DNA of 47,797 nucleotides from IMG/VR virus record IMGVR_UViG_2571042438_000008; one strand, 5' to 3'. The DNA comes from a virus. Taxonomy: Duplodnaviria > Heunggongvirae > Uroviricota > Caudoviricetes. Shown here piece after piece: positions 5,755 through 23,275 of the stretch (positions are counted from its first letter, which is position 1; each line of letters starts with the position of its first letter). Made by a program: the position numbers and the translations under genes. Below the pieces are notes generated by a model. The model was not told the DNA's origin, searched no databases, and saw only the letters and a program-made list of their open reading frames with translations.

Positions 5755-5759
5755 CCCAC

Positions 5760-6030: not shown

Positions 6031-6342
6031 CCCTTGCAGCGAGCTAAAGCTCGCGCCGGTTCGAGTCGCTACGCTCAAATATACCTCCTCCGGCACTTGC
6101 CGGAGGCATGGAGCAGCCTGATCATCCTTTTCGAAACGGCGCGTTTCGAACTATACAAAATCAATTTATATAAGGCCGAAATAAGGCCTACGGCCGGGCT
6201 TTGCAGGAGGAAGGGGCGAGCCTTATCAATAAACGTCGAGAAATACGCACACAGTAGCCATCAGAACGCGATAAAACGTAAGAAACATCATTTCCTATTA
6301 GACATAGAAAACTTGTCTTATACGCAATGTAGTAAATTTCTA

Positions 6343-6371
6343 TTGCCACATAGGAAAAGATTTCCTACCAT
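6343..6371 (+). promoter_or_regulatory. Promoter-like element TTGCCA-N17-TACCAT with spacer palindrome AGGAAA-AGA-TTTCCT
   Basis: It has the same architecture as the triplicated cassette promoters (TTTACA-N17-TATGGT with GGGAAA-AAA-TTTCC in the same spacer position). A perfect TATAAT also lies at 6378-6383. Confidence 0.45.
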
Positions 6372-6385
6372 CGTAGATATAATAA

Positions 6386-6685
6386 ATGGAGATGGTTATG
6401 GATAAAGATACTGTTTTAAAAATGTTGAATCCGGCTTGTTTAAAAAAAGCGGATGAATGGGAATCTCCTACATGTGGAGAAGTTCGGGCAGTCATTGGCC
6501 TCACCGGAATGAGTGGCTCGCAGTTGGCCAAAAAACTAGGCTTAAAAGATAGTCGCAATGTTCGCAACTGGCAGATGTTAAAGGAGTCCACATCCAGATC
6601 CAGCATTCCGTATGCAGCCTGGGCGCTGCTGTGTTACTTCGCTGGGTTAGGGTTAATCTTCATTGATAACAAAACAGATGTTTGA
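6386..6685 (+). CDS. Small HTH DNA-binding protein (XRE-like); start may be ATG 6398
   Basis: The HTH-like segment is GMSGSQLAKKLGLKDSRNVRNW. A GGAGA sits 6 nt before ATG 6398. The stop overlaps the next ORF. Confidence 0.7.
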   Translation: MEMVMDKDTVLKMLNPACLKKADEWESPTCGEVRAVIGLTGMSGSQLAKKLGLKDSRNVRNWQMLKESTSRSSIPYAAWALLCYFAGLGLIFIDNKTDV

Positions 6686-6708
6686 AACATGCAAATATGA
6701 GGTTTGTT

Positions 6709-6972
6709 ATGGAACTTGTACGCAAAACACGCAAAGAGTTCTTGGACCTGTATCGCATGGGAGCTTTCACTTGTGTTGTGGCTACCCAGGACGAAGTGAC
6801 AAAAAGCTGGCGGCTTTTTGCTCTCAATAAAAAAGGGATTGCCGTTTTCATTGAAAAAGCCCGTGGTGGTATCCGCGAATGGGCGGGATTGAATTATGTG
6901 GCTGATTTTTGCGCAGCTATGGGGATTCGTCGCTGGGAAGTCCATATGCCAGGAGTAAAGTCACAAAAATAG
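6709..6972 (+). CDS. Hypothetical protein (alternative starts 6682 TTG, 6697 ATG)
   Basis: GAGG lies 6 nt upstream of ATG 6709. The gene is co-oriented with, and abuts, the HTH gene. I recognise no family. Confidence 0.5.
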   Translation: MELVRKTRKEFLDLYRMGAFTCVVATQDEVTKSWRLFALNKKGIAVFIEKARGGIREWAGLNYVADFCAAMGIRRWEVHMPGVKSQK

Positions 6973-7000
6973 GGCTTTCGCGTCGAAAATGAGGCGAAAC

Positions 7001-7016
7001 TGAAAACGAGATTTCA
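7001..7016. promoter_or_regulatory. ARG-box-like palindrome TGAAA-ACGAGA-TTTCA (possible accessory site for Xer recombination)
   Basis: It resembles the ArgR half-site pattern TGAAT-N6-ATTCA. It lies about 110 bp on the XerC-arm side of the core site, as in cer-type sites. Confidence 0.3.
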
Positions 7017-7113
7017 TTAACAAATAAGCAACATAAAAAACGGTGGAAAACGCCCAGGAAAACATGATCTTTTGAGCGGATTTTTTAGATCCGACAATGA
7101 ACGGTGATCCGGT

Positions 7114-7141
7114 GGTGCCGATAACGTCCATTATGTTAAAT
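7114..7141 (+). other. dif/cer-like XerC/XerD recombination core site (multimer resolution)
   Basis: GGTGCCGATAA-CGTCCA-TTATGTTAAAT compared with E. coli dif GGTGCGCATAA-TGTATA-TTATGTTAAAT. The XerD arm matches 11/11, the XerC arm 9/11, and the spacer is 6 bp. Confidence 0.7.
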
Positions 7142-7154
7142 AGCCCCGTTTTTC

Positions 7155-7206
7155 TTGAAATTATAACCCACAGGTTATATAGTTAGTGATATAAACTACA
7201 GGTTAT
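7155..7206 (+). promoter_or_regulatory. Promoter TTGAAA-N17-TATAGT with two operator palindromes (ATAACC-CACA-GGTTAT, ATAAAC-TACA-GGTTAT)
   Basis: The -35 is at 7155-7160 and the -10 at 7178-7183. IR1 (7163-7178) sits in the spacer and IR2 (7191-7206) just downstream, immediately before the toxin-antitoxin pair. Confidence 0.6.
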
Positions 7207-7216
7207 AGGATTGAGC

Positions 7217-7564
7217 ATGTGGACGGTACTTTTTAGCCAGCGATTTGACGACTGGCTAAATGAGCAAGAAGACGCTCTTCAGGAAAAGGTTTTGGCTGAT
7301 TTGAAAAAGCTACAGGTTTACGGACCTGAGTTACCCAGGCCATATGCCGATACCGTAAAAGGTTCTCGGTACAAAAATATGAAAGAGCTTCGCGTTCAGT
7401 TTTCTGGCCGTCCGATAAGAGCCTTTTATGCGTTCGATCCGATTCGTCGGGCCATCGTTCTTTGTGCAGGAGACAAAAGTAACGATAAGCGGTTTTATAA
7501 AAAACTGGTGCGTATAGCTGAGGATGAGTTTGCAGCACATCTGAACACACTGGAGAGCAAGTAA
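7217..7564 (+). CDS. higB: Type II toxin, HigB-like / RelE-ParE superfamily (phage Gp49-type)
   Basis: 115 aa. The block ..YGPELPRPYADTVKGSRYKNMKELRVQFSGRPIRAFYAFDPIRRAIVLCAGDK.. is typical of the killer-protein family. The toxin-first order with an overlapping XRE antitoxin (ATGA-type junction) fits HigBA. Confidence 0.8.
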   Translation: MWTVLFSQRFDDWLNEQEDALQEKVLADLKKLQVYGPELPRPYADTVKGSRYKNMKELRVQFSGRPIRAFYAFDPIRRAIVLCAGDKSNDKRFYKKLVRIAEDEFAAHLNTLESK

Positions 7565-7863
7565 TGAGAACATTAGATGAGGTGATTGCCAGCCGTTCAC
7601 CTGAAAGCCAGGCGCGAATTAAAGAAATGGCAGATGAGATGATTCTTGAGGTCGGCTTGCAGATGATGCGTGAAGAACTCCAGTTATCACAAAAACAGGT
7701 TGCTGAGGCGATGGGTATAAGCCAGCCAGCAGTAACAAAGCTGGAGCAGCGCGGAAATGATTTAAAGCTGGCGACATTAAAGCGTTACGTTGAAGCTATG
7801 GGAGGCAAATTAAGCCTGGATGTTGAGCTTCCTACAGGAAAGCGAGTAGCGTTCCATGTCTAA
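7564..7863 (+). CDS. higA: Type II antitoxin, HigA-like XRE-family HTH
   Basis: The HTH is LSQKQVAEAMGISQPAVTKLEQ. The start overlaps the toxin stop. Confidence 0.8.
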   Translation: MRTLDEVIASRSPESQARIKEMADEMILEVGLQMMREELQLSQKQVAEAMGISQPAVTKLEQRGNDLKLATLKRYVEAMGGKLSLDVELPTGKRVAFHV

Positions 7864-7871
7864 CATAATGT

Positions 7872-7890
7872 AAGGCCCCATTGGGGCCTT
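7872..7890. terminator. GC hairpin between convergent genes (bidirectional terminator candidate)
   Basis: AAGGCCCC-ATT-GGGGCCTT between the stop at 7863 (+) and the stop at 7897 (-). Confidence 0.55.
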
Positions 7891-7896
7891 ACTTAT

Positions 7897-8181
7897 TTAC
7901 TTACCATTTTTGCGGTTTTTTTCGGACTTCATAAGCTGGCTAACGCGCCCAGGTGTGATATTTAACATGCGGCTTACTTCAGCTTGTGATCCTACTTCCT
8001 CTACTAGCGATGCAACATAGCGAGATTTTCCTGAGGAGGTTAATCCATTATATGTTGCTCGTGCGACTTTTCCCTGAGCTTCTCTCATATCAACTAATGC
8101 CTGAGCAACCTGCTCAAAACCTTTAATTGTTACTTCTGTTAATGCTCGAATAGCATCAATTTCAGATTTTGGTTTAGCCAT
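7897..8181 (-). CDS. Small DNA-binding protein with C-terminal HTH
   Basis: 94 aa with a GGAGGTG Shine-Dalgarno. The HTH-like segment is SQAEVSRMLNITPGRVSQLM. It is divergent from cassette copy 1. Confidence 0.65.
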   Translation of the reverse strand: MAKPKSEIDAIRALTEVTIKGFEQVAQALVDMREAQGKVARATYNGLTSSGKSRYVASLVEEVGSQAEVSRMLNITPGRVSQLMKSEKNRKNGK

Positions 8182-8228
8182 TTGGCACCTCCAATTGTTT
8201 AAAATGTGTTAATTGTAAAATTCAGCCG

Positions 8229-8247
8229 ATACCATGTTCAATGGTAT
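8229..8247. promoter_or_regulatory. Perfect palindrome ATACCAT-GTTCA-ATGGTAT overlapping a minus-strand promoter (TTGAAA-N18-TATACC)
   Basis: 7-bp arms with a 5-bp spacer. It overlaps the -10 and start region of the promoter for 7897..8181. The pattern is related to ACCAC-N5-GTGGT but with T/A at the inner position. Confidence 0.5.
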
Positions 8248-8339
8248 ACCATTGCTGAAATGTCTTTTTCAAGACCTTGCCAATAAGCTAAACAAAAATG
8301 TTTAATGTGCAGCCTAAAAAAGCACCAGTCACTATTATT

Positions 8340-8441
8340 TATATAATTATAGATTTATATAAAAAGTGCTTTACGGGTGGGAAAAAATTTCCTATGGTTA
8401 TACCCGAAACCGAGCGATACCCGCCCTGGTTAAACCGGAGA
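8340..8441 (+). repeat. Promoter-leader cassette, copy 1 of 3 (102 bp)
   Basis: One mismatch to 17297-17398. It consists of an AT box, -35 TTTACG (8370-8375), the spacer palindrome GGGAAAAAATTTCC, -10 TATGGT (8393-8398), and the leader ..TATACCCGAAACCGAGCGATACCCGCCCTGGTTAAACCGGAGA. Confidence 0.85.
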
Positions 8442-8448
8442 TAACCCG

Positions 8449-8829
8449 ATGAGCATGATTAAAATCCGCAAAAACGCTTTCCTTAAAATTCAAACTATCC
8501 TGGCTGGTTCTGTCGGCGTGATTTGCCGTTCTTCTTCAAGCCGCATCGATGACGGCTACGATGATGAGTATCGTGTGTCCTCGTGCGATGAGGCTTTAAC
8601 CTGGCTGAAGGAGAATCAGGAACGTGCCCAGGTATATCTGGAAACAGAGAACGGCAATCAGATGCTGCGTATTAGCGGTCGTTATGGATTTGAAACTACA
8701 TTCATGGCCTATTTTAATCAGGCTTACTTTGACAAGGAGCTGGCCTGGTACACTGACCGCATGAGCAAAAGCGAGCCAGCCCCGATTACACCGCCGAACA
8801 ATAAACCATTTTTATTCCTCGTTAAGTAA
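8449..8829 (+). CDS. Hypothetical protein (first gene behind cassette copy 1)
   Basis: 126-aa ORF starting 8 nt after the cassette GGAGA. I recognise no family. Confidence 0.6.
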   Translation: MSMIKIRKNAFLKIQTILAGSVGVICRSSSSRIDDGYDDEYRVSSCDEALTWLKENQERAQVYLETENGNQMLRISGRYGFETTFMAYFNQAYFDKELAWYTDRMSKSEPAPITPPNNKPFLFLVK

Positions 8830-8837
8830 ACACAATG

Positions 8838-8864
8838 CGCAAAGTGTCATTTTGACACTTTGCG
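8838..8864 (+). terminator. 11-bp perfect hairpin (possible terminator or RNA stabiliser)
   Basis: CGCAAAGTGTC-ATTTT-GACACTTTGCG directly after the 8829 stop. The U-tract is weak. Confidence 0.45.
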
Positions 8865-8892
8865 AGTGTTAATATTGTTCGAGGAGGATGCT

Positions 8893-9166
8893 ATGACGGG
8901 TTATGAATTGAAATTATGGCGTCGTGGGATGAATTGGACGCAGGAGCGAGCCGCTGAAGAGTTTGGGATATCGTTGGCTACATATAAGCGATATGAGAAG
9001 GGTGAGCCGCCGAGGGGGCATTGAGATGGCCATTCGCGTTCTGTCGTTTGACGATATGGTTAAGGATCTTTCACACCTTGATAAAGATGCGATTCTGTTA
9101 AGGCTGCAAACCCTTGTATGGGAAAAGGTTAAAGTGTCGTCAGAATTGGAACAAGGGATCAAATGA
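8893..9166 (+). pseudogene. XRE-family HTH gene interrupted by a frameshift at a G5 run (9014-9018)
   Basis: A GAGGAGGA Shine-Dalgarno precedes ATG 8893. Frame 1 reads MTGYELKLWRRGMNWTQERAAEEFGISLATYKRYEKGEPPRGH and stops at 9024. Removing one G gives ..EPPRGIEMAIRVLSFDDMVKDL.., which continues to 9166 (about 91 aa). Confidence 0.6.
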
Positions 9167-9215
9167 TCCTTTACGGATCGTTTTATGGTGGTGTAATGTA
9201 AGCGCCAGAAAGACA

Positions 9216-9239
9216 AAAACCGCCTTGCCGGGCGGTTTT
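9216..9239. terminator. Bidirectional rho-independent terminator
   Basis: AAAACCGCC-TTGCCG-GGCGGTTTT, with A/T runs on both sides. Confidence 0.7.
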
Positions 9240-9776
9240 CAGTCTGAAATTTAAATCTTGCTTGGTAGGCTGGATTTAAAAAGACACCTCTTGATTGGGG
9301 CGGCTTTCTTGCGTCTAAAGATAATCAAATCTTTTTGCGCCTGCAACCCCTTTTTTACTGGTGCCCATTTCAGACTCACGCTCGCGTCGTTGTCTTTGCC
9401 ACTTCGTTGGGTTCGGTGTTTTTGGGCGAAGTGGCGCGCGGGTATGCGTACAAGGGGAAAGTGTGCTGACGCAAGCCAGGAACAGCGATCTAAACTAAGT
9501 CGAGTCTGAGAAAGGCAGGAGTGCGACAACTCGCCTGTGCTCTATGAGCAGAAGAAGGTATATCAGACGACCAATGGCATGATTGTGGGCCACAGGGCGC
9601 ACACGGCGGCGAAGCATTGGAAACGATGTGGAGCTATCTGGTGGCATGAGTTCCGGTACTCGATCTCGAGCTTTTTTTGATGCTTTTGAGAAGGGGCCGG
9701 AACTCCGGTAAAGGGCACCCTGTATGGGGGGAGGGGGGGTTGTGTCTGAAGGGTGGCTATCGGTTATGGTGGAATT

Positions 9777-9965
9777 ATGATGCGTAGAAAAGCGAGTTTG
9801 CTGCAAGCTATTGGGTCCATTATTTCTTTGTTTCCGGCAGTTGATCATTTTCGTCATATGGCGACACGTTCGAGTATGGGCTTGGCGCGTGACGCTGACG
9901 CTATTCGAAAGGATTTTCAGAAAGTCTCTGGTGTTGATAAGAGAGAAAAGAGTAAGGGGCCGTAG
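9777..9965 (+). CDS. Small hypothetical protein (62 aa; ORF open from 9753)
   Basis: MMRRKASLLQAIGSIISLFPAVDHFRHMATRSSMGLARDADAIRKDFQKV.. is not low-complexity. GGTGGA lies upstream of ATG 9777. The ORF ends inside a GC hairpin. Confidence 0.35.
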   Translation: MMRRKASLLQAIGSIISLFPAVDHFRHMATRSSMGLARDADAIRKDFQKVSGVDKREKSKGP

Positions 9966-9971
9966 CCCCTT
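9954..9971 (-). terminator. GC hairpin after the antirepressor gene stop
   Basis: AAGGGGC-CGTA-GCCCCTT. On the minus strand it is followed by a pyrimidine/U-rich tract. Confidence 0.45.
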
Positions 9972-9975
9972 GTAG

Positions 9976-11175
9976 TTATGGTCTGCTTTTCTGTGCCAGC
10001 TTATCAGCACATGTTTTTATCAGATCCTGTAGTGTCCTGGCTGGCAGGTTTGCATCCAGTACGCTGAGTATGCTGTTGTGATCTGCTTGGTCGACTACTT
10101 TGCCTGTCGGTGGTAGTAGCTTGAGCTGAGGATTCAGGTTTTCGTCAAAGCTGATAAGTGCTCTGGCGTTTCTGAGCAGATCAAGAAGTAAGGCTGATAT
10201 CACATTTTCCTGAGTCATTGCTGGCAGACTTAGCGCCGCTTTGGTTTTCCCTGTTGCCTTGTCAAACTCCTTGATTAGTTCCTTCCTGTAGTTCGGTTCC
10301 GTTAATAGCCGATTATGCTCTGTTGCCGCGCGGATAATCGTTTTTTCCTGGTATAGTCGTTTAGCCAGATCACGCTCGTACTGTGTTTTTAACACGCTGC
10401 TGATAGCGTTAAAGGCTTCAATGTAGGCCAGCTTGATATCTTTCACGCCTGGACCGTCGATGCTCTCCATGAGCAAGGTAAATCCGTCTTTTGTCATGCG
10501 ATAGATTGTTATTTCGCGGTCGCTTCCTTCCAGCGGTCGTTGCTCTTTAAAGAAGTGACGCGCCGCAGCCGTGCGAGGAATGCGTAGCGCATCGATGGCC
10601 ATAACGATGGAATTGTTTGTGGTGCTGAATGCCTGGGCAACATCGGCTGAGGTTGTGAGTGGCTCGTTGTTGCACACTTTAATGTAAAACATCGGTTTGG
10701 CGTTGAGCGTATCGACAACCTCACGAGCATTGCTTGGCGAGACGGTTACGGTCGCGGCCGTTTGCGCGTTCCGGCTGAAATAGCAGTCTTCCAGCCGTTC
10801 GAACACATCCCACGCTTGGTTAGTTTCAAGCATTTTGGCGTGACGTGCAGCCCCGCGTTCTGTCCAGAGAATGAGGGAGCGGGCTTTCGGGGAAATTTGT
10901 AACCCTCTTAAAGATGGTTGCACATTTTGTGAGTTACTTAAAGTAACCCGCAAATTTTGTGAGTGACTTAAAGTCACTCGCAAAGTTTTTAACTCATCGC
11001 CAGCCACTTTGAAAAAATGCTTTCCTTCAATAAAGCGGTTTGCGTTACGTGAGTAATTTTTTTTGATGTTATCAACGTCTGTGCCGTATAGCTTTGCCAG
11101 TAGTTCAGTAGTGATAACGGGGATCTGGTTATGCAGGATAGGCTGTAGGGTGTTAACGGTCGGAAGCGTTTTCAT
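9976..11175 (-). CDS. ant: Antirepressor-like protein (N-terminal ORF6N/KilA-N-like domain + Rha-like domain)
   Basis: The N-terminus IPVITTELLAKLYGTDVDNIKKNYSRNANRFIEGKHFFKV...ILWTERGAARHAKMLETNQAWDVFERLEDCYF is ORF6N-type. The middle EPLTTSADVAQAF..IYRMTKDGFTLLMESIDGPGVKDIKLAYIEAFN is Rha-type. The start overlaps the upstream ORF stop (ATGA). Confidence 0.8.
   Translation of the reverse strand: MKTLPTVNTLQPILHNQIPVITTELLAKLYGTDVDNIKKNYSRNANRFIEGKHFFKVAGDELKTLRVTLSHSQNLRVTLSNSQNVQPSLRGLQISPKARSLILWTERGAARHAKMLETNQAWDVFERLEDCYFSRNAQTAATVTVSPSNAREVVDTLNAKPMFYIKVCNNEPLTTSADVAQAFSTTNNSIVMAIDALRIPRTAAARHFFKEQRPLEGSDREITIYRMTKDGFTLLMESIDGPGVKDIKLAYIEAFNAISSVLKTQYERDLAKRLYQEKTIIRAATEHNRLLTEPNYRKELIKEFDKATGKTKAALSLPAMTQENVISALLLDLLRNARALISFDENLNPQLKLLPPTGKVVDQADHNSILSVLDANLPARTLQDLIKTCADKLAQKSRP
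10921..10980. repeat. Two tandem 30-bp repeats inside ant, each holding a 5-bp-arm palindrome (GTTAC-TTAAA-GTAAC / GTGAC-TTAAA-GTCAC)
   Basis: 10921-10950 and 10951-10980 differ at 4 positions. Two of those differences are compensatory (T:A to G:C) and preserve the palindrome. Confidence 0.8.
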
Positions 11176-11399
11176 TTTGCACCTCCCATAACTACTTTGG
11201 TTACGAGGGAGATTTTTGCGTCAGAAACAGCGTTATCGTTGCTGGCGATGCGCATAGCTTCGCGCTCGATGATTTCAGTCAGGCGGAATTTATCGGCGTA
11301 TGAGGCTTTCTTGAGAAGGATCTTTACGAGGTTGACGTAATAGTCATGGGGTAGGTTTGTCATTGTGATATCTCCAGTATATGGAACTATCACCGCCAT
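11172..11399 (-). CDS. Small protein translationally coupled to ant (position equivalent to P1 icd); alternative start ATG 11363 with a GGAG Shine-Dalgarno
   Basis: 75-aa ORF (63 aa from 11363). Its stop overlaps the ant start codon. I make no family call. Confidence 0.55.
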   Translation of the reverse strand: MAVIVPYTGDITMTNLPHDYYVNLVKILLKKASYADKFRLTEIIEREAMRIASNDNAVSDAKISLVTKVVMGGAK

Positions 11400-11413
11400 T
11401 CGAGGCTAATCAA

Positions 11414-11497
11414 ATGGTGGTGAGCCGTACAGGGTTAGCCTTACCGGACACAATGACGAACCGGCGCGGATTTCTCCGCCCCTGTACGACCCACCAT
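11414..11497 (-). ncRNA. Candidate structured regulatory RNA (c4-like) in the ant operon leader
   Basis: An 84-nt three-way structure. The outer stem is ATGGTGG/CCACCAT (7 bp), the second stem GTACAGGG/CCCTGTAC (8 bp), and the inner hairpins are GCGGA-TTTC-TCCGC (11466-11479) and CCGG..CCGG (11444-11464). The loop segment AGGCUAA (minus-strand RNA) is complementary to UUAGCCU, which occurs in two flanking direct repeats GAUUAGCCUC (11402-11411 and 11567-11576). Confidence 0.35.
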
Positions 11498-11525
11498 AAT
11501 TTGGGCGTAACAGTGCTCTACGCAT

Positions 11526-11545
11526 AAAAAAACCGCTAACGCGGT
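11526..11545 (-). terminator. Rho-independent terminator (minus strand) inside the ant leader
   Basis: On the minus strand ACCGC-GTTA-GCGGT is followed by T7. Confidence 0.65.
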
Positions 11546-11658
11546 ATGCGCCATCGTGTTATTCAGGAGGCTAATCCCGGCCGTAGATTTTGCTACGGCT
11601 CGGAAAGTGTCCACCAATGGCGCATTTATGTCAATACGGCGGGATTTTAACAGAGACA

Positions 11659-11673
11659 ACCACATAGCGTGGG
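11659..11673. promoter_or_regulatory. Near-perfect operator-like palindrome ACCAC-ATAGC-GTGGG in the ant leader
   Basis: 9/10 match to the ACCAC-N5-GTGGT family. It lies beside a minus-strand TAAAAT -10-like hexamer. Confidence 0.4.
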
Positions 11674-11691
11674 TTTATTGGTAGGCAGAAA

Positions 11692-11807
11692 CAAAAAAAC
11701 CGCCCTATTGAGGACGGTTCTTTCGTGCTGATCGGATTCGCGGTCCTTTCAGCATTACGTTGTTGTATAAACAACCACGCAAGCACAAGCAGCAAGTTAA
11801 TTTTACC
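11692..11807 (-). ncRNA. Candidate ~115-nt sRNA (promoter TTGAAG-N16-TATTAC, internal hairpin, strong terminator)
   Basis: Minus-strand features: -35 at 11836-11841 and -10 at 11814-11819; 5-prime region ..ACUUGCUGCUUGUGCUUGCG..; hairpin GTTGTT-TATA-CAACAAC; terminator AACCGUCC-UCAAUA-GGGCGGUU plus U7 (11692-11719). Nucleotides 11779-11793 are the exact complement of plus-strand 12037-12051. Confidence 0.45.
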
Positions 11808-12116
11808 CAAAAGGTAATAATAGTCCACTATTATGCTTCAAAAAATTGTGGTTCTTGTTGTGCCTGCAAACTCACAGATTGTGGGTAGGTTACTGATTTT
11901 GTGAAAATAAACGAGTTTTTTCGTTTAATTTCTTTCCTATTACTAATCTTAAAATAATCGTAAAATACCTGTGGACCTTCCCGCCGATTCGCACCCGGGC
12001 ACCGACTTTAGGGGAGGATTCTCCGTTGCCGTACATGCAAGCACAAGCAGCCGTGCTTGCTCTCGCGTTGTTTTCGTCGGTGGGGATGCCGTGAAACGGC
12101 CTGTAAGGGCCATACA

Positions 12117-12239
12117 ATGAAAAAATACTGTATGTGTATTTTTATCGTTGTTACTGGGGCTTTGTTTACGCCACATGGGGAGGGTTGGAAGATTACTGAT
12201 AACGCTCTGAATGTGACGATAAACATTAGCAGCAAGTAG
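12117..12239 (+). CDS. Small hydrophobic peptide (40 aa), candidate type I toxin or small membrane/secreted protein
   Basis: MKKYCMCIFIVVTGALFTPHGEGWKITDNALNVTINISSK. A strong plus-strand terminator follows immediately. A TAAAAT -10-like hexamer at 11961-11966 would give a ~145-nt structured 5-prime UTR. The Shine-Dalgarno is weak. Confidence 0.4.
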   Translation: MKKYCMCIFIVVTGALFTPHGEGWKITDNALNVTINISSK

Positions 12240-12244
12240 CGATT

Positions 12245-12268
12245 AGGCCCCTTCGGGGGCCTTTTTTT
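12245..12268 (+). terminator. Rho-independent terminator (plus strand)
   Basis: AGGCCCC-TTCG-GGGGCCT followed by T7. Confidence 0.8.
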
Positions 12269-12278
12269 ATGGCTGAAT

Positions 12279-12428
12279 TTAAACGCTGGAGCGCATTAAG
12301 CCTTTCAGAACTGCTTCACGTACCCATTCTGGCCTGGTGGATAGCAGGGCAAATAAGCAGCCAGCTTGCAGCCGTTTGAGGTCGGTTAGACGAGTTTTCA
12401 GTAACCGTGTATATTGTTGCTCGGACAT
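12279..12428 (-). CDS. Small hypothetical protein (49 aa from ATG 12428)
   Basis: AAGGGGA Shine-Dalgarno 8 nt upstream. It is the last gene of the par operon direction. Confidence 0.4.
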   Translation of the reverse strand: MSEQQYTRLLKTRLTDLKRLQAGCLFALLSTRPEWVREAVLKGLMRSSV

Positions 12429-12490
12429 AACAAATTCCCCTTGTTGTGTCGCGACGGCCAACAGTTGGCGCTGGAGGCCGTCACCTTCTC

Positions 12491-12739
12491 TTACTTCTGG
12501 TTGTATTGAGCCTTGAGTAACTCAAAAGACTTTGTCAGCACTTCTTTCAATGACATATCCATTGAGCTGGCGAACGTTTTGTACTCGCGTTTAAATTCAG
12601 GGTCGACGTTAAACGCCATTTGTGCCCCACCTGATTTGGTTCTGGTTGGCGTTTCAGTCGGGTCGAAAACCTGCGGTTGTTCGATCGATGGCGGTACGCC
12701 TTTGCTGTTCTTCTTTGGTGGTTTTGATGGTGCGGCCAT
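12491..12739 (-). CDS. Small partition/centromere-binding protein, ParG/omega-like (disordered N-terminal tail + RHH-like C-terminus)
   Basis: 82 aa, directly downstream of parA. The C-terminus MAFNVDPEFKREYKTFASSMDMSLKEVLTKSFELLKAQ has a beta-alpha-alpha pattern. Its size and position fit type Ib par systems. Confidence 0.6.
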   Translation of the reverse strand: MAAPSKPPKKNSKGVPPSIEQPQVFDPTETPTRTKSGGAQMAFNVDPEFKREYKTFASSMDMSLKEVLTKSFELLKAQYNQK

Positions 12740-12751
12740 GTGTATCCCCTC

Positions 12752-12786
12752 TTATATAAATCTATAAAACTATAATTATATATTAT
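12752..12786. repeat. AT box (TTATATAAATCTATAAAACTATAATTATATATTAT) between parA and the parG-like gene
   Basis: Member of the dispersed AT-box family built from TATAATTATA and ATAAATCTATA words. Confidence 0.7.
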
Positions 12787-13451
12787 GCGGCAGTAGTCAG
12801 AGCCTCAAGCTGGTTGATAATCCCCTGAATAACGTCGTCTGCCTTTTTGCGTGGCGCAACGTATGAGCACTCAATGAGGCTTAAGCCCTTATCCTGAGCT
12901 TTGCTCAGAGCTGGCTTGTGGGGAATGTACTTATCGACAACAAAGTATGGCGTATTAGCCAGGTACTCTTGGGCTTCAATATAGTCAGCTTCGTTTTCAG
13001 CCGCGCCGGAAAACACCATGCAAATTTTCTTGATTGGTACACCCTTTTTAACGATGCCGTGAGCAGTGTTAACGGTGGTTTCCAGGTCATCGGTAGAGAA
13101 TCGGGTTGGCAAAATAACCATATCCAGAAATTCAGATAGCTTCGGTACTGATTCAGATGCGTAGGCACCGCCATCGACGATAACCAGGTCGTATACTTCT
13201 GATTCGATGATTTTCTGGACTTGTGATGGTGTGCCGCACGGCTGCGCCGCGATTGCTGGTTCGATATTGTTGGCCATTCTGCGTTGTACCCAACGCGTTA
13301 CCGTTCCGTTAAGCACATCCATATCGATCAGGCATACATTCCAGCCAGCCTTTGCATAAGCAACTGCTAAAGCACGGGCAATTGTTGATTTGGTTACGCC
13401 GCCTTTTCCGTTGAAAATACCTACAGAGATAGTCATTTGTCGAGGCTCCAT
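12783..13451 (-). CDS. parA: Partition ATPase ParA (type Ib, deviant Walker A)
   Basis: GKGGVTKST Walker A box. 222 aa with no N-terminal HTH extension. Confidence 0.9.
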   Translation of the reverse strand: MEPRQMTISVGIFNGKGGVTKSTIARALAVAYAKAGWNVCLIDMDVLNGTVTRWVQRRMANNIEPAIAAQPCGTPSQVQKIIESEVYDLVIVDGGAYASESVPKLSEFLDMVILPTRFSTDDLETTVNTAHGIVKKGVPIKKICMVFSGAAENEADYIEAQEYLANTPYFVVDKYIPHKPALSKAQDKGLSLIECSYVAPRKKADDVIQGIINQLEALTTAA

Positions 13452-13459
13452 GTGTTTGG

Positions 13460-13491
13460 TTATATAATTCTATAAATCTATATTTATAGAA
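13460..13491. repeat. AT box upstream of parA (TATATAATTCTATAAATCTATATTTATAGA)
   Basis: AT-box family member. Candidate centromere/operator. Confidence 0.7.
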
Positions 13492-13530
13492 CGAGGTAAG
13501 CATAACCAACTTTTTGGCTGATGAAAAGCG

Positions 13531-13565
13531 TTTTATATAATTATATAAATCTATAATCATATAAG
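13531..13565. repeat. AT box upstream of parA (TTTTATATAATTATATAAATCTATAATCATATAA)
   Basis: AT-box family member. Candidate centromere/operator. Confidence 0.7.
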
Positions 13566-13586
13566 CGGGCGTTAGCCCGCTTGCAG

Positions 13587-13961
13587 TCAGAGGTCAGCTA
13601 TCGTTGATATCAGTTGATTTGCTAGCTGTCGCTGTTTACGTGAGAGGGTTAGAGCAGCTTCTGAGCGGTCGCTAAGAGGGGGGGTTTCATCAAGAATCAT
13701 GAGGCATACAGAAATAATAGCCCTGTTATATGCCATCAATGGCTGGCACAGCTTCGATACCGCTGGCACATCGTATTGTAAGGCCGTTTTGAGGCAGACT
13801 TTTTGTTCTGATGCCAGATGAAGGATAGATTCTATCCAGTCGATATCTTTCTCATTATCAATGATTTGGCATAACATACACTCAATCGCTATGTTCAACG
13901 CTTGGATTTCGATTCCAGCAGTGATCAGAGTTTCGTTTTTATTGGCTGTATGTAATTCCAT
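13587..13961 (-). CDS. Hypothetical protein
   Basis: 124-aa ORF between cI and the par locus, with an AAGAGG Shine-Dalgarno. Confidence 0.6.
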   Translation of the reverse strand: MELHTANKNETLITAGIEIQALNIAIECMLCQIIDNEKDIDWIESILHLASEQKVCLKTALQYDVPAVSKLCQPLMAYNRAIISVCLMILDETPPLSDRSEAALTLSRKQRQLANQLISTIADL

Positions 13962-13996
13962 GCGTAGCCTCTTTTATACTTTTACATGTTGTCAAA

Positions 13997-14011
13997 ACCA
14001 CAAAATGTGGT
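13997..14011. promoter_or_regulatory. Perfect ACCAC-AAAAT-GTGGT palindrome
   Basis: Located between the cI stop and the next minus-strand gene, overlapping a TTGACA hexamer. Confidence 0.5.
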
Positions 14012-14053
14012 TTTTTTGAGCGTAGAAATGCACGGCTTTCGCCGTGCTGTGTA

Positions 14054-14710
14054 TCATAACCAGTTGACAACACTAACTACGCGGCCAAGAACTTTATAAC
14101 GCTTAAATTCCTCGTTATTCAGATGCTTAGTGTTCATTTCAGCATCCCTTTCGGTTGACAGCATAACAGCATTGTCACCCGGTATGACTCTACAGTGCCT
14201 CAAAACAACCAGGCCATTTCTGTCTTCAAGGGCATAGATCCCCTCATGAATCTCTGTATCGTCTGTATTAATCAGGACTTGGGAGCCTGGGGATATTGTT
14301 GGTGACATTAACTCATCGTTGCTCTGGAGAACTGACAGAGACGATGGGTTGATGTTCTTGCTTCGTAGAATCTCCTGTTCTATCGCCAGCACTGGCTTTT
14401 CTCCGGCGTGCGATGCTATGTCATTTTTTATAGCTACAAGCCCAGGAATAACAGGAGCGTTAGTATTCTGGGGTGGGAACGGGTTATCTGTTAAGCACGC
14501 GATATAAGGCGCTGATGCTTTCAGGGCGTGCGCGATTTTCTTGATGGCAGGTATAGATGGTTGTCTTAATCCGGCCTCATAGTTCTGCAAGGTGCTTAAG
14601 CCTATTCCAGTGACTTGCTGGAGATCTCCGGCAGTCATGCCGGATTGTTTCCGTAGAGTCTGAATGCGCAGACCTATTTCTTTCTTGATGTTCTCGTCGT
14701 TGCTTTTCAT
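14054..14710 (-). CDS. CI-like repressor (XRE HTH + S24 LexA-like C-terminal domain, catalytic dyad apparently substituted)
   Basis: The N-terminal HTH is MTAGDLQQVTGIGLSTLQNYEAG. The C-terminus aligns by eye to the S24 fold: DELMSPTISPGSQVLIN against GDSMEPTI.dGd.vlv, and GLVVLRHCRV against ..vvKRl... The gene is divergent from a Cro-like gene across an operator-rich region. Confidence 0.85.
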   Translation of the reverse strand: MKSNDENIKKEIGLRIQTLRKQSGMTAGDLQQVTGIGLSTLQNYEAGLRQPSIPAIKKIAHALKASAPYIACLTDNPFPPQNTNAPVIPGLVAIKNDIASHAGEKPVLAIEQEILRSKNINPSSLSVLQSNDELMSPTISPGSQVLINTDDTEIHEGIYALEDRNGLVVLRHCRVIPGDNAVMLSTERDAEMNTKHLNNEEFKRYKVLGRVVSVVNWL

Positions 14711-14747
14711 GTCTCATCAATCGTGAATGGTGGGTTATTTATACATT

Positions 14748-14762
14748 ACCACATTTAGTGGT
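14748..14762. promoter_or_regulatory. Operator: perfect ACCAC-ATTTA-GTGGT
   Basis: In the cI/cro divergent intergenic region. Confidence 0.6.
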
Positions 14763-14850
14763 TTTCACATGGTAAGACGAGAGGTGGACCACAAATAGAA
14801 GGTTATTTTTTGTTTCGCCCATTGAAAAACTCACGATATGTGGTTTTAAT

Positions 14851-14865
14851 ACCACGTATCGTGGT
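14851..14865. promoter_or_regulatory. Operator: perfect ACCAC-GTATC-GTGGT
   Basis: In the cI/cro intergenic region. Degenerate relatives lie at 14788-14804 (ACCAC-AAATA-GAAGGTT) and 14830-14844 (CTCAC-GATAT-GTGGT). Confidence 0.6.
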
Positions 14866-14884
14866 TTTAACTGGAGTTCGTTAA

Positions 14885-15379
14885 ATGACCTTTCAGGAGT
14901 GGGTTGACGAAAATGGAGGCCAAATTGGTGTTGCCAGAAAGTTTTGCTTTACGTCATCACTGATTGGTGCCTGGTATCGCTTCGAGAGATTCCCTCGTGC
15001 GGATAACCTGACGCTGCTGGTGGCGTATTCGGAAGGCCGGATTAACGTCCAGCAATGGGCGGCAGATTTTGCCGAACGTCAGCGCCAGCGTAGCGATGGC
15101 ACATCGGTTCGGCAGAACAAGATCAAAGGGAATCTCCCTGTTAACTGCTTATCAAGGCTGAAAGCGGTTTTCTCTGAGCTGGGGATGCCTGCGGAGCGTT
15201 GCAATCTACGCGGTCCGCGATTCATTGCTCGCTGGAAACACTCACACGTAACCGTTTCAGAGGTTCGTGATGCGATTACCGTGCTGGAGCTTAAGAATAA
15301 AGATTCCAGCGATATCGAGCTGATTCATAAGGAGATTAGCAACGCCCGGCGTTCAGCACTTGGGAGGCTTGAGGAATGA
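14885..15379 (+). CDS. Cro/YdaS-like HTH protein with C-terminal extension (first gene of rightward operon)
   Basis: Divergent from cI. The N-terminus QEWVDENGGQIGVARKFCFTSSLIGAWYRFERFP resembles the Cro/YdaS-type HTH. Confidence 0.55.
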   Translation: MTFQEWVDENGGQIGVARKFCFTSSLIGAWYRFERFPRADNLTLLVAYSEGRINVQQWAADFAERQRQRSDGTSVRQNKIKGNLPVNCLSRLKAVFSELGMPAERCNLRGPRFIARWKHSHVTVSEVRDAITVLELKNKDSSDIELIHKEISNARRSALGRLEE

Positions 15380-15891
15380 TGATTCTGGCCTTCTTTGGTG
15401 ATAATCACCAGATTCAATCGCAGGTGGTGCACTACCTTGATCAAACGATTAAAGGATTTGTTATCGATCATATTGATAACGATAGCAAACGTCTATCTGT
15501 AGAGCAGAAAATTGGAGGTGTGCAGCGACTGGTTGCCAGCCGTAACAGACGTGACACCGTAACAGTCGTTACGGGGATTACGGAGGTCATGGAGTACCAG
15601 ATGTTGCTGCATCGTGGAGCTGTTTTCTGCGTTCTTCCTGGTATTCTGCCAGCAATTCTTGCTCGTGGTTTTGTCCCTATTGATGAGTCGTTCTTATATG
15701 TAACCCCAAGCCGTTCCCTTCTGGATACGGAGGCGAAGCGTCGCATTTATATGATGCCGGACGAGGCATTTTCTGAATGTTACCGCCGTGAAATGAGGTT
15801 GGGTAAACGAGAAGTGTCTGTTGTTCGTGATGGCAGGTTTTTAAGAAGCCGCACGGTGAAAAGCACCAGAAATGACGGGGGCCATCAATGA
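15376..15891 (+). CDS. Hypothetical protein
   Basis: 171-aa ORF with start overlapping the upstream stop (ATGATGA). Confidence 0.6.
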   Translation: MMILAFFGDNHQIQSQVVHYLDQTIKGFVIDHIDNDSKRLSVEQKIGGVQRLVASRNRRDTVTVVTGITEVMEYQMLLHRGAVFCVLPGILPAILARGFVPIDESFLYVTPSRSLLDTEAKRRIYMMPDEAFSECYRREMRLGKREVSVVRDGRFLRSRTVKSTRNDGGHQ

Positions 15892-16121
15892 GTAGTTATG
15901 TTCGCGGTGCTGCGATGCATTGCCAGAATCCCCAATTCTGGCGCTTTCTGACCAGTAAAACAGGGAAGAACGTTTCAAACAGTTCTGAGGCCTCTGTGAT
16001 TCTGCGTGAGTTTTGCGGGATCTCATCCCGTAAAGAGCTGGCAAAGAACTACGCGGCCAGAAGCATGTATGTCCAGTTAATCAACGAGTTCAACCTCTTT
16101 ATCAATGGTAAGGGGCGCTGA
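15888..16121 (+). CDS. Hypothetical protein
   Basis: 77-aa ORF with overlapping start and stop on both sides. Confidence 0.55.
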   Translation: MSSYVRGAAMHCQNPQFWRFLTSKTGKNVSNSSEASVILREFCGISSRKELAKNYAARSMYVQLINEFNLFINGKGR

Positions 16122-16525
16122 TGAACGGACGTACACCAACGAAGAAAGAGAAACTTTATATACAAGCGGTGCTCACTCACGTGGGTTGCATAGCTTGCAT
16201 TATTGATGGCCGTGAAATTGAGAATCCAGAGCTGTGGACGGAGCTACATCACGATCCTGATTACGGCAGCGTTGATGAGAATTGCCACTTCCATAGCTTT
16301 GGGTTGTGCGCACCACATCATCGCGGTGTTGTGCCTGGTGGTGGGCGTGTGCCTCCGCATATTGCCGTTCGTCACCCTCCCCTGAGTAATTGTGCTCGCT
16401 TTGTTGAGCGTTATGGCACAGATGAATTTTTGTGTGCGCAGACGTGGGAGCTGTTGCCGCAGTCAGTTAAAGACGAAATTGGGTTTGATCTTAGTCTTGG
16501 TGAAGTACCAGGGGATACCAAATGA
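16121..16525 (+). CDS. HNH-type nuclease, P1 Ref-like (recombination enhancement) family
   Basis: The Cys/His pattern GCIACI..ELHHDP..FGLCAPHHRG is as I recall it for Ref-family proteins. The gene sits in an early operon. Confidence 0.5.
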   Translation: MNGRTPTKKEKLYIQAVLTHVGCIACIIDGREIENPELWTELHHDPDYGSVDENCHFHSFGLCAPHHRGVVPGGGRVPPHIAVRHPPLSNCARFVERYGTDEFLCAQTWELLPQSVKDEIGFDLSLGEVPGDTK

Positions 16526-16854
16526 GATATACCGGCTTTCGCAAACCAGCGACAAGGAAAAGCAAATACGGCAATAAAAAAACGGTTGTCGATGATATCG
16601 CTTTTGATAGCAAAAAAGAGGCTGATTACTACTGCGAACTGAAGCTACTGAGAAAAGCTGGCCGCGTTGTGACGTTTCTTATGCAGGTGCCTTTTCATCT
16701 GCCAGGTGGTGTCGTTTATAAACTTGATTTCATGGTGTTTTATGACGATGGGACGATTGATTGTGTCGACACTAAAGGTGTGCGAACAGACGTCTACATC
16801 ATGAAGAAAAAGCAGGTAGAGGCGCTTTATCCCGTCACGATACGGGAGATCTGA
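16522..16854 (+). CDS. DUF1064-family protein (putative PD-(D/E)XK-like endonuclease/resolvase)
   Basis: KYGNKKTVVDDIAFDSKKEADYYCELKLL..KLDFMVFYDDG..DTKG matches the DUF1064 signature. Confidence 0.75.
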   Translation: MRYTGFRKPATRKSKYGNKKTVVDDIAFDSKKEADYYCELKLLRKAGRVVTFLMQVPFHLPGGVVYKLDFMVFYDDGTIDCVDTKGVRTDVYIMKKKQVEALYPVTIREI

Positions 16855-16857
16855 ACA

Positions 16858-17235
16858 GTGAGACGCGATCTGGATAGCTTGTTTGAGCTATGGGCGCTGT
16901 GGGTGCGCAATGGCTGCAACGCCCGTAGCGGTTTCGCGTCGATGTTAGAAATGATGATGGTTACGCGCTGCCAGTTTACCGGAGGGGGCGGCGCACCAAA
17001 TGACTCACTGGAAACCAGTATAGAGGGAGCGGTGACGGCCCTCACGGTAGTTGATGAGACTGCGGCGCTGGTTGTCCGAATTGAATACGGGGCGTGGGAG
17101 ATTCGGGGCCTCGACATAAATGCACCGCATATTGATAAAGCCCACGCCCTTTCTCTTAGCCTCAGACAGTATCGCCGGAAGCTGGCAAAAGCCAGGGCGT
17201 ATGTTGTCGACTATTTGAAAAAGCGAAGAGAGTAA
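16858..17235 (+). CDS. Antitermination protein Q-like
   Basis: 125 aa. The LFELWALWVRNG.. N-terminus and the ..LSLSLRQYRRKLAKARAYVVDYL C-terminus resemble the Phage_antitermQ family. It is the last gene of the early operon and is directly followed by cassette copy 2. Confidence 0.5.
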   Translation: MRRDLDSLFELWALWVRNGCNARSGFASMLEMMMVTRCQFTGGGGAPNDSLETSIEGAVTALTVVDETAALVVRIEYGAWEIRGLDINAPHIDKAHALSLSLRQYRRKLAKARAYVVDYLKKRRE

Positions 17236-17296
17236 AAGTGTCATTTTGAGCTGTTTTGATGGTGTGTAGACATCGGGAACATCGAAAATCTATAAA

Positions 17297-17398
17297 TATA
17301 TAATTATAGATTTATATAAAAAGTGCTTTACAGGTGGGAAAAAATTTCCTATGGTTATACCCGAAACCGAGCGATACCCGCCCTGGTTAAACCGGAGA
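17297..17398 (+). repeat. Promoter-leader cassette, copy 2 of 3 (102 bp)
   Basis: -35 TTTACA at 17327-17332, -10 TATGGT at 17350-17355. Identity with copy 3 continues to the ATG (AATCTGATGA). An extra inverted AT word ATCTATAA lies upstream (17288-17295). Confidence 0.85.
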
Positions 17399-17404
17399 AA
17401 TCTG

Positions 17405-18472
17405 ATGAATAAACAAGTAATTATTTCTGACTGGATCAACAACCCTAACAGCCTGTTAAGCACTGATACTGGCTACCTATTACGCCATGTTAATGGTCGT
17501 ATGGTCAAAAGCGATGAGCACGAAACCTTTTTCTTTGTTGAAGACGATGGGCGTATCTATGAGGATGGTTACTCTTATGAAGCCCAAACTGGTTGTATCC
17601 CTGCGGAGCTGGTGGACGTAACAGAAGATCTGCGCAAAGCATGGCTTGAACAGCAGCAGCGCGGAGATGATTACGTAAACACCTATCAGGAACGCCAGAA
17701 CGCGCGTCTTGCCCGATATATTGCTCGTGCAGAAAAAGCCAGAAAAGAAGGTGCGGTAGCGCATAAGCGAGCGCATGACCTGTTGGATGTGATCCCGTTA
17801 GGCCAGCCGATTTTAGTTGACCATTATAGCGCGAAAGGCCATCGCCGCCGTTTGTCTAAAGCTGATGCGTTATTCAGAAAAGCGTTTGTTGAATGCGAAA
17901 GTAAAGCATCACACTACGAGAGCAAAGCCGCAGGTGTTGGTCGTAATGGAATTTCGTCTGATGATCCTGATGCGCTATTTAAGTTGCTTCGTAAGCTGCA
18001 AGGCTGCATGAAGTCACACGTCAAAATGAAGGCCGCAAATAAGGCCATTCGCAAATACAAAAAAGACCAAATACAGCAGCTTTCTGCATTAATCGATCTC
18101 AGGTTTACAGAAAGCGAAGCCAAAGAGTTACTGGCCGGAGATTTCTGTGGGCACATCGGATTCCCTTCATACGCACTGAGCAACAATAACGCCGAAATCA
18201 AACGACTACAGAGCCGTATTAAGGAGCTTGAATCGGTCAAGTCTGTAACAGGAGCACAGCGCGAAGAATACGACGGCTTTTCTATGGAGATAGATCCAGA
18301 GGATAACCGCATCCTGTTTTATTTCCCTGGCAAACCAGAGGCAAACATTCGTTCGCTGCTTAAATCACGCGCCTTTAAGTGGAGTCCAACCCGTAATGCA
18401 TGGGTTCGCAAGATTACTCCAAACGCCCTGGCTGATGCCCGATATCTAAAAGAATCGCTATTGAAAGCCTGA
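17405..18472 (+). CDS. DUF3560-family protein
   Basis: 355 aa from ATG 17405. The block GQPILVDHYSAKGHRRRLSKAD..ISSDDPDA..MKAANKAIRKY and the C-terminal FKWSPTRNAWVR fit DUF3560, a family common in plasmid leading regions. The upstream extension MVIPETERYPPWLNRRNL is just the cassette leader. Confidence 0.7.
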   Translation: MNKQVIISDWINNPNSLLSTDTGYLLRHVNGRMVKSDEHETFFFVEDDGRIYEDGYSYEAQTGCIPAELVDVTEDLRKAWLEQQQRGDDYVNTYQERQNARLARYIARAEKARKEGAVAHKRAHDLLDVIPLGQPILVDHYSAKGHRRRLSKADALFRKAFVECESKASHYESKAAGVGRNGISSDDPDALFKLLRKLQGCMKSHVKMKAANKAIRKYKKDQIQQLSALIDLRFTESEAKELLAGDFCGHIGFPSYALSNNNAEIKRLQSRIKELESVKSVTGAQREEYDGFSMEIDPEDNRILFYFPGKPEANIRSLLKSRAFKWSPTRNAWVRKITPNALADARYLKESLLKA

Positions 18473-21233: not shown

Positions 21234-21378
21234 ACATTGCTTTTTTATTGATCGATTAACCACGATATGAAGGTTTTTTTATGGGGAAACCTTGTTTTAG
21301 GTGGTAACTGGGTGTAGTGTTTCATTTAACGTAGTAAAACTGCGTTAAGCGATTACCGCGTAATTTGTTGCTTTATGA

Positions 21379-21410
21379 AGCCCTGCCTTTTTCGGCGGGG
21401 CTTTTTTTTT
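21379..21410 (+). terminator. Strong rho-independent terminator immediately upstream of the lysis genes (tR-prime-like)
   Basis: AGCCCTGCC-TTTTTC-GGCGGGGCT followed by T9. Confidence 0.8.
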
Positions 21411-23199: not shown

Positions 23200-23275
23200 G
23201 GCCCCTTAGCTCAGTGGTTAGAGCAGGCGACTCATAATCGCACGGTCATCGGTTCAAATCCGGTAGGGGCCACCA
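23200..23275 (+). tRNA. tRNA with anticodon CAU, tRNA-Ile2 (ileX-like) rather than Met
   Basis: A 76-nt cloverleaf, GGCCCCTTAGCTCAGTGGTTAGAGCAGGCGACTCATAATCGC..GGTTCAAATCC..GGGGCCACCA, with the anticodon at 23233-23235 and an encoded CCA. The 5-prime half is identical to E. coli ileX as I recall it. The acceptor stem has C4-G69 and C5-G68. Confidence 0.9.

Follow-up and report, generated by a model that had tools for sequence, protein, structure and literature searches.

The DNA analysed here, called the window throughout, is the whole 47,797-nucleotide stretch of the IMG/VR virus record IMGVR_UViG_2571042438_000008 (Caudoviricetes), and it is a complete or nearly complete myovirus phage-plasmid of ~48 kb. 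The palindromes ACCAC-N5-GTGGT dispersed over this element, in their common extended form AAAACCAC-R-N3-Y-GTGGTTTT, are predicted from sequence comparison to be the operators of a CI repressor regulon, with sites at the immunity switch, the replication gene repA, the isrK/C4-ant antirepressor operon and the late leader (probability about 0.75). The sites exist, are non-random, keep their positions and arms in eight lineages, and track an invariant recognition helix in CI. A first-pass annotation of the same DNA had proposed a dispersed set of CI-type operators touching immunity, the antirepressor operon, plasmid replication and the late region, and this proposal is supported by conserved positions, invariant arms, free spacers and the invariant helix.

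Five perfect copies of ACCAC-N5-GTGGT were found in the window (starts 4726, 13997, 14748, 14851 and 44001), against an expectation of 0.01 obtained from 100 dinucleotide-preserving shuffles, and 0 of the 100 shuffles reached five. The first-pass annotation had listed four perfect copies as exceeding chance; all four are at the coordinates it gave and the excess is confirmed, but the total is five, the copy at 44001-44015 having been missed. The one-mismatch (9/10) copy that it reported at 11659-11673 is present, and a second one starts at 26185. All operators that it claimed were found, but a two-mismatch (8/10) copy at 14830-14844, 21 bp from the site at 14851, had been overlooked. It had also proposed a scan with a position weight matrix, and a matrix trained solely on sites of other lineages gave 22.0-31.0 bits to six window sites, starting at 14851 (O1), 13997 (OL), 4726 (O-rep), 14748 (O3), 14830 (O2) and 11659 (O-ant), while the best of 100 shuffles reached 17.2 bits and the next window match 11.9 bits. 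A weak match at 11871-11885 was dropped because it is not conserved in other lineages.

At the immunity switch, O1, O2, O3 and one site of a composite variant (ACCAC-N5-GAAGGTT) all lie within 14711-14884 and overlap the predicted -35/-10 hexamers of two divergent promoters. This interval separates cI (14054-14710, minus strand), encoding a 218-aa repressor with an N-terminal HTH_3 domain and a weak S24-like C-terminal domain, from the first rightward gene divergent from it (14885-15379, plus strand), encoding a 164-aa protein of phrog_7452 (unknown function). The predicted rightward promoter PR consists of -35 TTGAAA (14822-14827), a 17-bp spacer and -10 TTTAAT (14845-14850). O1 (14851-14865, ACCACGTATCGTGGT, perfect, 31.0 bits, conserved in seven lineages) lies over its start site at about -6 to +9, and O2 (14830-14844, CTCACGATATGTGGT, 8/10, 25.2 bits) fills its spacer. 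O3 (14748-14762, ACCACATTTAGTGGT, perfect, 25.6 bits) is located at about -31 to -17 of PRM, the promoter predicted to drive cI (-10 TATAAA at 14743 to 14738 on the minus strand, with a weak -35).

The centre-to-centre distance of O1 and O2 is 21 bp and that of O2 and O3 is 81-83 bp in all lineages; the inner arms GTGGT-N6-ACCAC of O1 and O2 are invariant, and the composite site is 40-42 bp from both O3 and O2 in the lineages where its position was measured. With these conserved spacings, all switch sites face approximately the same side of the DNA helix, an arrangement suggestive of cooperative binding. The arrangement of divergent promoters and operators is kept in seven lineages, and the PR and PRM hexamers are either kept in the relatives or swapped for equivalents. 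In the proposed mechanism, CI on O1 and O2, at the start and in the spacer of PR, would turn the rightward early operon off, O3 in the spacer of the weak PRM would limit cI expression, and the weak composite site would sit in helical phase between O3 and O2.

The family of this CI protein is small (13 clusters). The comparison comprised seven further lineages with a CI 60-66% identical to that of the window, and a Serratia plasmid (L015) with a CI of 33% identity was also listed; the relatives are Salmonella (L014, L029), Citrobacter-type (L027, L028), C. amalonaticus (L025), K. aerogenes (L026), Yokenella-like (L013/L023) and Serratia (L015) loci. O1, O2 and O3, between cI and the 164-aa gene, together with OL were observed in every 60-66% lineage examined, an equivalent of O-rep was observed ahead of the repA leader in all loci long enough to include it, and an equivalent of O-ant was observed in the E. 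coli-type loci, L025, L029 and L023. Mean pairwise identity was 0.97 in the arms and 0.89 in the flanks of 3 bp on either side, as against 0.60 in the N5 spacer and 0.69 in the far flanks. With a matrix made from the six window sites, orthologous full sites scored at least 19.7 bits in six 60-66% lineages; composite sites scored 10.1-17.1 bits where detected, and the immunity copies of L014 and L027 were under the 9-bit listing threshold.

In the Serratia relative the perfect palindromes are gone, and GTGGTT/AACCAC half-sites are found at OR, at OL (two half-sites ~19 bp apart), upstream of repA, where the half-site of O-rep is kept, and upstream of the holin gene (ACCAC half-sites). Of the 24 GTGGTT/AACCAC hexamers in this genome, 9 lie in the intergenic 15%.

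O-rep (4726-4740, perfect, 30.6 bits) abuts a TATGAT hexamer (4741-4746) and lies ~107 nt downstream of a conserved promoter (TTGACT-16-TATGAT, 4592-4619) and 178-192 nt upstream of the probable start of repA at 4918. The gene is annotated at 4777-5754 (plus strand; IncFII_repA family, PF02387, E=1.2e-43), but the annotated start is probably too far upstream, since relatives start at the ATG matching 4918 and the Pfam match covers the protein from residue 52 onwards. The site is kept in five lineages with a variable spacer. On the minus strand, the repA leader (4777-4917) contains a conserved long hairpin (4819-4897) and a terminator (4783-4812), the stem of which shows a compensatory change in relatives (GCCCGCAG/CTGCGGGC to GCCCGCGG/CCGCGGGC), and the two are a candidate copy-control antisense RNA. 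A search of the leader against Rfam returned no CopA match and no family. No copB-like gene is present, an ORF of suitable size being absent from the ~105 nt between the promoter at 4592-4619 and the palindrome, and a minus-strand ORF (4651-4905) is interrupted by a 4-nt indel in relatives. The repA control region showed no DNA similarity to the classical IncFII plasmids R1/R100, its matches being limited to its own family. By binding O-rep in the leader/promoter region of this copB-less IncFII-type replicon, CI would keep RepA supply and copy number low in lysogens, and induction would release them; a lowering of repA transcription and prophage copy number by the repressor is predicted by analogy with N15 and phiKO2 (PMC4997575).

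The antirepressor operon (9976-11599, minus strand) consists of an isrK-like RNA (11599 to 11526; Rfam 68 bits, threshold 50), a C4 antisense RNA (11501 to 11413; Rfam 70.8 bits, threshold 45), a 75-aa ORF (11399 to 11172) and an ORF6N/Ant protein matching anti-repressor PHROGs (11175 to 9976). A C4 RNA gene upstream of ant is also the arrangement of the immI-type loci of P1, P7 and N15. O-ant (11659-11673, ACCACATAGCGTGGG, 9/10, 22.0 bits) is located 67 nt upstream of the isrK start, a distance fixed in all lineages. It had been described as a site in the leader of the ant operon; the site is there, but what it precedes are the isrK and C4 RNA genes and not a 74-aa protein, and the listed 74-aa ORF (11441-11665) is not taken as a protein gene because the isrK and C4 RNAs from Rfam lie there. 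A conserved promoter (TTGACA-17-GACACT) has its +1 exactly at the isrK 5' end (11599), and O-ant lies further upstream at about -36 to -22 of an extended -10 candidate (TGTTAAAAT, 11652 to 11644, minus strand; TGGTAGATT in the other group of loci). This layout suggests tandem promoters at isrK-C4-ant, of which the upstream one would be controlled by the repressor, with CI at O-ant covering its -35 region. A similar arrangement exists in P1, where P51b/Op51 lies upstream of P51a.

O-ant is kept in six sequences even though L005 and L007 have an unrelated upstream flank and the 24 nt on the downstream side are group-specific. L014, L027 and L028, with a different ant module, have no O-ant site. 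No LexA box was found near the ant operon, and the sole CTGT-N8-ACAG, at 37491, is at chance level. Adjoining the ant leader, a full-length match to ryfA RNA (141.8 bits) was observed at 11971-12267 (plus strand); it is probably a type I toxin locus and may be a plasmid-maintenance module.

OL (13997-14011, perfect, 30.8 bits) lies between the conserved cI terminator hairpin (14030-14047) and the start (13961) of orf124 (13587-13961, minus strand; phrog_7632), a gene directly downstream of OL that precedes parA and is syntenic in all lineages. Its arms are unchanged in nine sequences, with the spacer reading AAAAT, AAATC, AAAGC, GAAAC, GTAAC, GATTC or GCAAC. Occupied by CI, OL might silence a weak promoter at this position, stop transcription running on from cI, or act as one end of a DNA loop.

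The composite variant ACCAC-N5-GAAGGTT is expected 0.16 times with at most one mismatch, and 1 of 100 shuffles reached two. Both copies reported by the first-pass annotation are confirmed and are conserved at both positions. The immunity copy (14788-14804, plus strand, ACCACAAATAGAAGGTT) lies between O3 and O2 at about -61 from the predicted PR start, and ACCAC-N5-GRAGG is conserved there in all seven aligned lineages. In the late copy (21259-21275, plus strand, ACCACGATATGAAGGTT), both halves are invariant and N5 varies over eight lineages. The late copy is at about -60 from a conserved promoter candidate (-35 TTGTTT at 21292-21297, 17-bp spacer, -10 TAGTGT at 21315-21320), which is followed by a 5' hairpin (AACGTAG-TAAAA-CTGCGTT), an intrinsic terminator (21379-21410) and the holin genes. 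Such a half-strength site ~60 bp upstream of the late-leader promoter would extend CI control to the late region. The composite could be an operator that CI binds weakly, or another factor could share it. A small-ORF/Shine-Dalgarno origin of GAAGG was considered and rejected, as no conserved downstream ORF exists. The late leader (21292-21410) is itself conserved in eight lineages, and its order of elements suggests control of the late genes by antitermination, though no antiterminator was identified.

From the sequence we infer which protein binds the palindromes, which promoters they belong to, and the direction and size of the regulatory effects. The N-terminal domain of CI matches HTH_3 with E=4.5e-11, the protein matches the repressor family phrog_4 with 1e-26, and PHROG CI-like families match over the full length; a sequence search of PDB returned HTH domains only. 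The recognition helix STLQNYE is invariant in three aligned lineages with CI identities of 33-66%, including Serratia. A CI dimer would place one such helix on each ACCAC/GTGGT arm, the arm centres being 10 bp apart. CI residues ~130-150 read SNDELMSPTISPG, in which no GDSM-type serine motif was seen by eye. The absence of this motif, together with the ant operon and the lack of a LexA box, suggests that CI is induced by an antirepressor rather than by self-cleavage.

Several observations weigh against the CI reading. The Peptidase_S24 match of CI (E=0.0018, 18.4 bits) is below the Pfam cut-off of 23.3, and CI gave no alignment with LexA by BLASTP or hhalign. A generic promoter scan reported none of the predicted switch promoters, no convincing sigma-70 promoter was found at OL, and the TATGAT next to O-rep is only -10-like and reads TAAGAA in two lineages. 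O-ant at -67 from the well-supported isrK promoter and the late composite at about -60 are both in non-classical positions for a repressor, and a half-site that is simply weak would not account for why GAAGG is so strictly conserved in the composite. The literature searched contained no binding or expression data on this phage-plasmid family. Finally, the comparison cannot separate CI from the Cro-like 164-aa protein, because both occur together in every lineage.

The last point bears on the most serious alternative, that the sites are bound mainly or only by another protein of the element, with the 164-aa Cro-like protein as the best candidate, and serve lytic-phase control such as shutting off cI and controlling repA and ant. 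In conservation and synteny the 164-aa protein equals CI. Its residues 1-70 were modelled as a five-helix bundle (pLDDT 78-88), and this N-terminal domain is predicted to be Cro/YdaS-like; the best fold matches (3bd1, 8co2 and 6on0) reached a TM of 0.59-0.67, normalised to the target, with E-values that are statistically non-significant. The helix-turn-helix of CI, on the other hand, is confidently assigned, recognition helix and half-site stay invariant together, and in the lambdoid and N15-type switches used for comparison it is the prophage repressor that binds the OR operators. Exclusive or predominant use of the sites by the 164-aa protein is judged quite unlikely. The Cro-like protein probably shares sites with CI, and it need not share every one, since Cro and CB differ in site preference in N15, phiKO2 and PY54.

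A second alternative takes the palindromes as dispersed centromere sites of the small ParB-like protein, like the four scattered sopC sites of N15, whose centromeres are dispersed. The element has a type Ib-like parA encoding a small ParA (12783-13451, minus strand) and an 82-aa ParB-like gene, and OL is ~550 bp upstream of parA. However, the DNA directly upstream of parA, and other loci as well, carry another family of repeats, which is AT-rich, and half of the palindromic sites are packed in the cI-cro promoter region. In Serratia the ParB-like protein is only 39% identical and the AT-rich repeats are changed, whereas the GTGGT half-site is unchanged; this divergence beside a constant ACCAC half-site disfavours a centromere role, which is regarded as very improbable.

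Least credible of all is an action in RNA, where the palindromes would form small hairpins or serve as weak intrinsic terminators in both directions (A-run, stem, T-run), for although the extended sites fold at -5.6 to -8.2 kcal/mol with A/T runs on either side and a terminator scan flags the O2/O1 region, the stems are weak with only three G-C pairs, O1, O2 and O3 lie in promoter hexamers and spacers rather than at gene ends, a proper cI terminator hairpin adjoins OL, and the arms are invariant without covariation. The arm deviations observed (CCCAC, CTCAC, GTGGG and GTGAT) are all one-sided and uncompensated, so that each breaks the pairing; invariant, uncompensated arms with variable spacers favour a dimeric DNA-binding protein over an RNA stem.

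For binding by CI, the nearest functional precedent is the CB repressor of N15 and phiKO2, for which three OR and two OL operators at the repA promoter and a lowered copy number have been described (PMC4997575). Like these phages, the window element is a phage-plasmid with a lambda-like divergent repressor/cro switch, several palindromic operators and additional predicted sites for that repressor at the gene for plasmid replication, here at the promoter/leader of repA. Differences are also evident: the window replicon, unrelated to that of N15, is circular with an IncFII-type RepA and a leader hairpin and terminator, whereas N15 has a primase-type RepA; repA is 9.3 kb from cI in the window but adjacent in N15; the operators are 15-bp ACCAC-N5-GTGGT sites instead of the 16-bp T-A-N10-T-A type; and in the window the ant operon and the late leader carry additional sites. 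N15 also has an antirepressor locus with C4-type RNA control, as in the window element.

The first-pass annotation had compared the network with that of P1 C1, which has 22 dispersed asymmetric operators (PMC8546580). The dispersal of operators of one prophage repressor over a plasmid prophage is indeed shared, but the window sites are symmetric 15-mers, 6-9 in number (6 strong, 2-3 weak), in contrast to the 22 asymmetric 17-mers (ATTGCTCTAATAAATTT) of P1, and the repressor, encoded in a divergent switch of lambda type, is CI-like, with an XRE/HTH_3 domain and a putative second domain. The element thus works like the dispersed network of P1 without being in the P1 C1 family, and N15/phiKO2 CB is the better precedent. 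One C1 operator of P1 (Op51) lies at the promoter region of immI (c4-icd-ant), and others lie at replication functions.

As in lambda, an HTH repressor, putatively of two domains, faces three operators between divergent predicted PR and PRM promoters, adjacent sites are spaced at whole helical turns, and a separate operator set lies beyond cI; a divergent gene for a candidate Cro-type protein and several palindromes over both predicted promoters, as in a lambdoid switch, are present. Unlike lambda, the window has a single OL beside the cI terminator with no clear promoter, additional distal sites, a plasmid rather than an integrated prophage, and an S24-like domain that is only a weak match. 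The replicon in turn resembles those of the IncFII plasmids R1 and R100 in its IncFII-family RepA, a conserved upstream promoter, a dyad protein site near repA and an antisense-type hairpin and terminator in the leader. It differs from them in having no copB-like gene, no Rfam CopA match and no DNA similarity in the control region, and the dyad matches the operator of the phage repressor instead. In R1, a CopB-controlled promoter is located where the window has the phage operator.

A dispersed wiring of this kind is already known from N15 and P1, and it is predicted here in a common, unstudied E. coli element; no publication on regulation of this phage-plasmid family was found in the literature searched. 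The map of sites extends the N15/P1 principle to an IncFII-type replicon and adds no new principle. It offers a testable wiring that couples lysogeny to copy number, antirepressor control and late genes, and it supplies defined 15-bp targets for mutagenesis.

A wider reading, tentative and on balance doubtful, would join three parts. Firstly, the phage repressor might have taken over the role of CopB, so that one protein would set both immunity and copy number. Secondly, the sites at -60 to -67 from the isrK/C4 and late-leader promoters, and the strictly conserved composite half-site GAAGG, might be something other than simple repression sites, CI alone or with a partner activating the anti-antirepressor RNA from there or looping distal DNA to the switch. 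Thirdly, with the AT-rich repeat network added, the element might carry two interlocking global regulators.

Three further palindromic features were evaluated outside the six matrix-supported sites. The fifth perfect copy (44001-44015) lies within a tail gene (43735-44736), in codons for G-P-P-S-V-V. It is without the A/T flanks and the R/Y spacer ends and falls outside the 25 best weight-matrix matches, and at the equivalent position in Salmonella the peptide is kept and both arms are altered at synonymous positions; this copy is probably fortuitous. A candidate tandem pair of half-degenerate sites (26164-26199, ACATCTTAATGTGGT / ACCACTTTCTGTGTT) occupies codons 3-15 of a ParB/Srx-like gene. 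Its inner arms GTGGT-N6-ACCAC repeat the O2/O1 junction pattern (two found, 0.02 expected); conservation here is uninformative because the block is ~95% conserved overall, and its role as an operator pair is uncertain. A perfect 19-bp palindrome (ATACCATGTTCAATGGTAT, ATACCAT-N5-ATGGTAT) at 8229-8247, 48 nt upstream of a 94-aa HTH-like gene (7897-8181, minus strand), had been counted as related to the network. It is present, but it is confined to loci with the 94-aa gene module and departs at an otherwise invariant arm position; it is not part of the network and is probably a separate local operator of the 94-aa gene, in an accessory module.

With regard to the element itself, positions 3000-18000 of the window match circular E. 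coli plasmids 46-52 kb in size, such as pEC488-4 (L001) and one from ATCC 25922, at identities reaching 99.7%. The immunity region is shared at 99% identity by three isolated Yersinia phages (vB_YpM_39, 41 and 44), which match positions 3000-18000 at ~98% identity with 85% of the stretch covered. Across the stretches compared, identity of the window to the E. coli plasmids and the three Yersinia phages is 97-99%, and the structural genes in the window are of myovirus type. The element is common: the CI search returned 58 plasmid records with a CI of at least 95% identity, and the repA leader search returned 63 records, including the plasmid of the reference strain E. coli ATCC 25922. Membership in the pSLy3 phage-plasmid group was rejected, pSLy3 being a relative of SSU5. 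A ParA search of genome contigs returned only two loci, both from Clostridia and unrelated. In the Serratia plasmid L015 (NZ_CP074139.1), the module of repA, ant, parAB, orf124, cI and the 164-aa gene is joined to lambda-like siphovirus head/tail genes in place of the myovirus set; this pairing means that the plasmid/immunity module has moved between phage morphotypes.

A second dispersed repeat family was also observed. A ~60-bp cassette (TATATAATTATAGATTTATATAAAAAGTGCTTTACAGGTGGGAAAAAATTTCCTATGG) precedes three genes, with copies at 8340-8398, 17297-17354 and 24175-24232, and at two of these genes it extends into the start codon (ATG at 17351 and 24229). Further, related copies are located at 13460-13560 (upstream of parA, minus strand), 12752-12771, 7162-7190, 18521 and 23041. 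AT-rich palindromes TTATA-N6-TATAA lie upstream of parA, and Salmonella and Serratia have their own versions at equivalent places. The 82-aa ParB-like protein may use these AT-rich repeats as operators or as a centromere, which would give a second regulon.

In the late/accessory region, a tRNA gene is present at 23200-23272 (plus strand). Within 26012-26150, a ~120-bp GC-rich non-coding block comes after a Chi sequence (GCTGGTGG, 26012-26019); the block is near-identical in Salmonella, lies upstream of the ParB/Srx-like and terminase genes, and may be a packaging site or a structured RNA.

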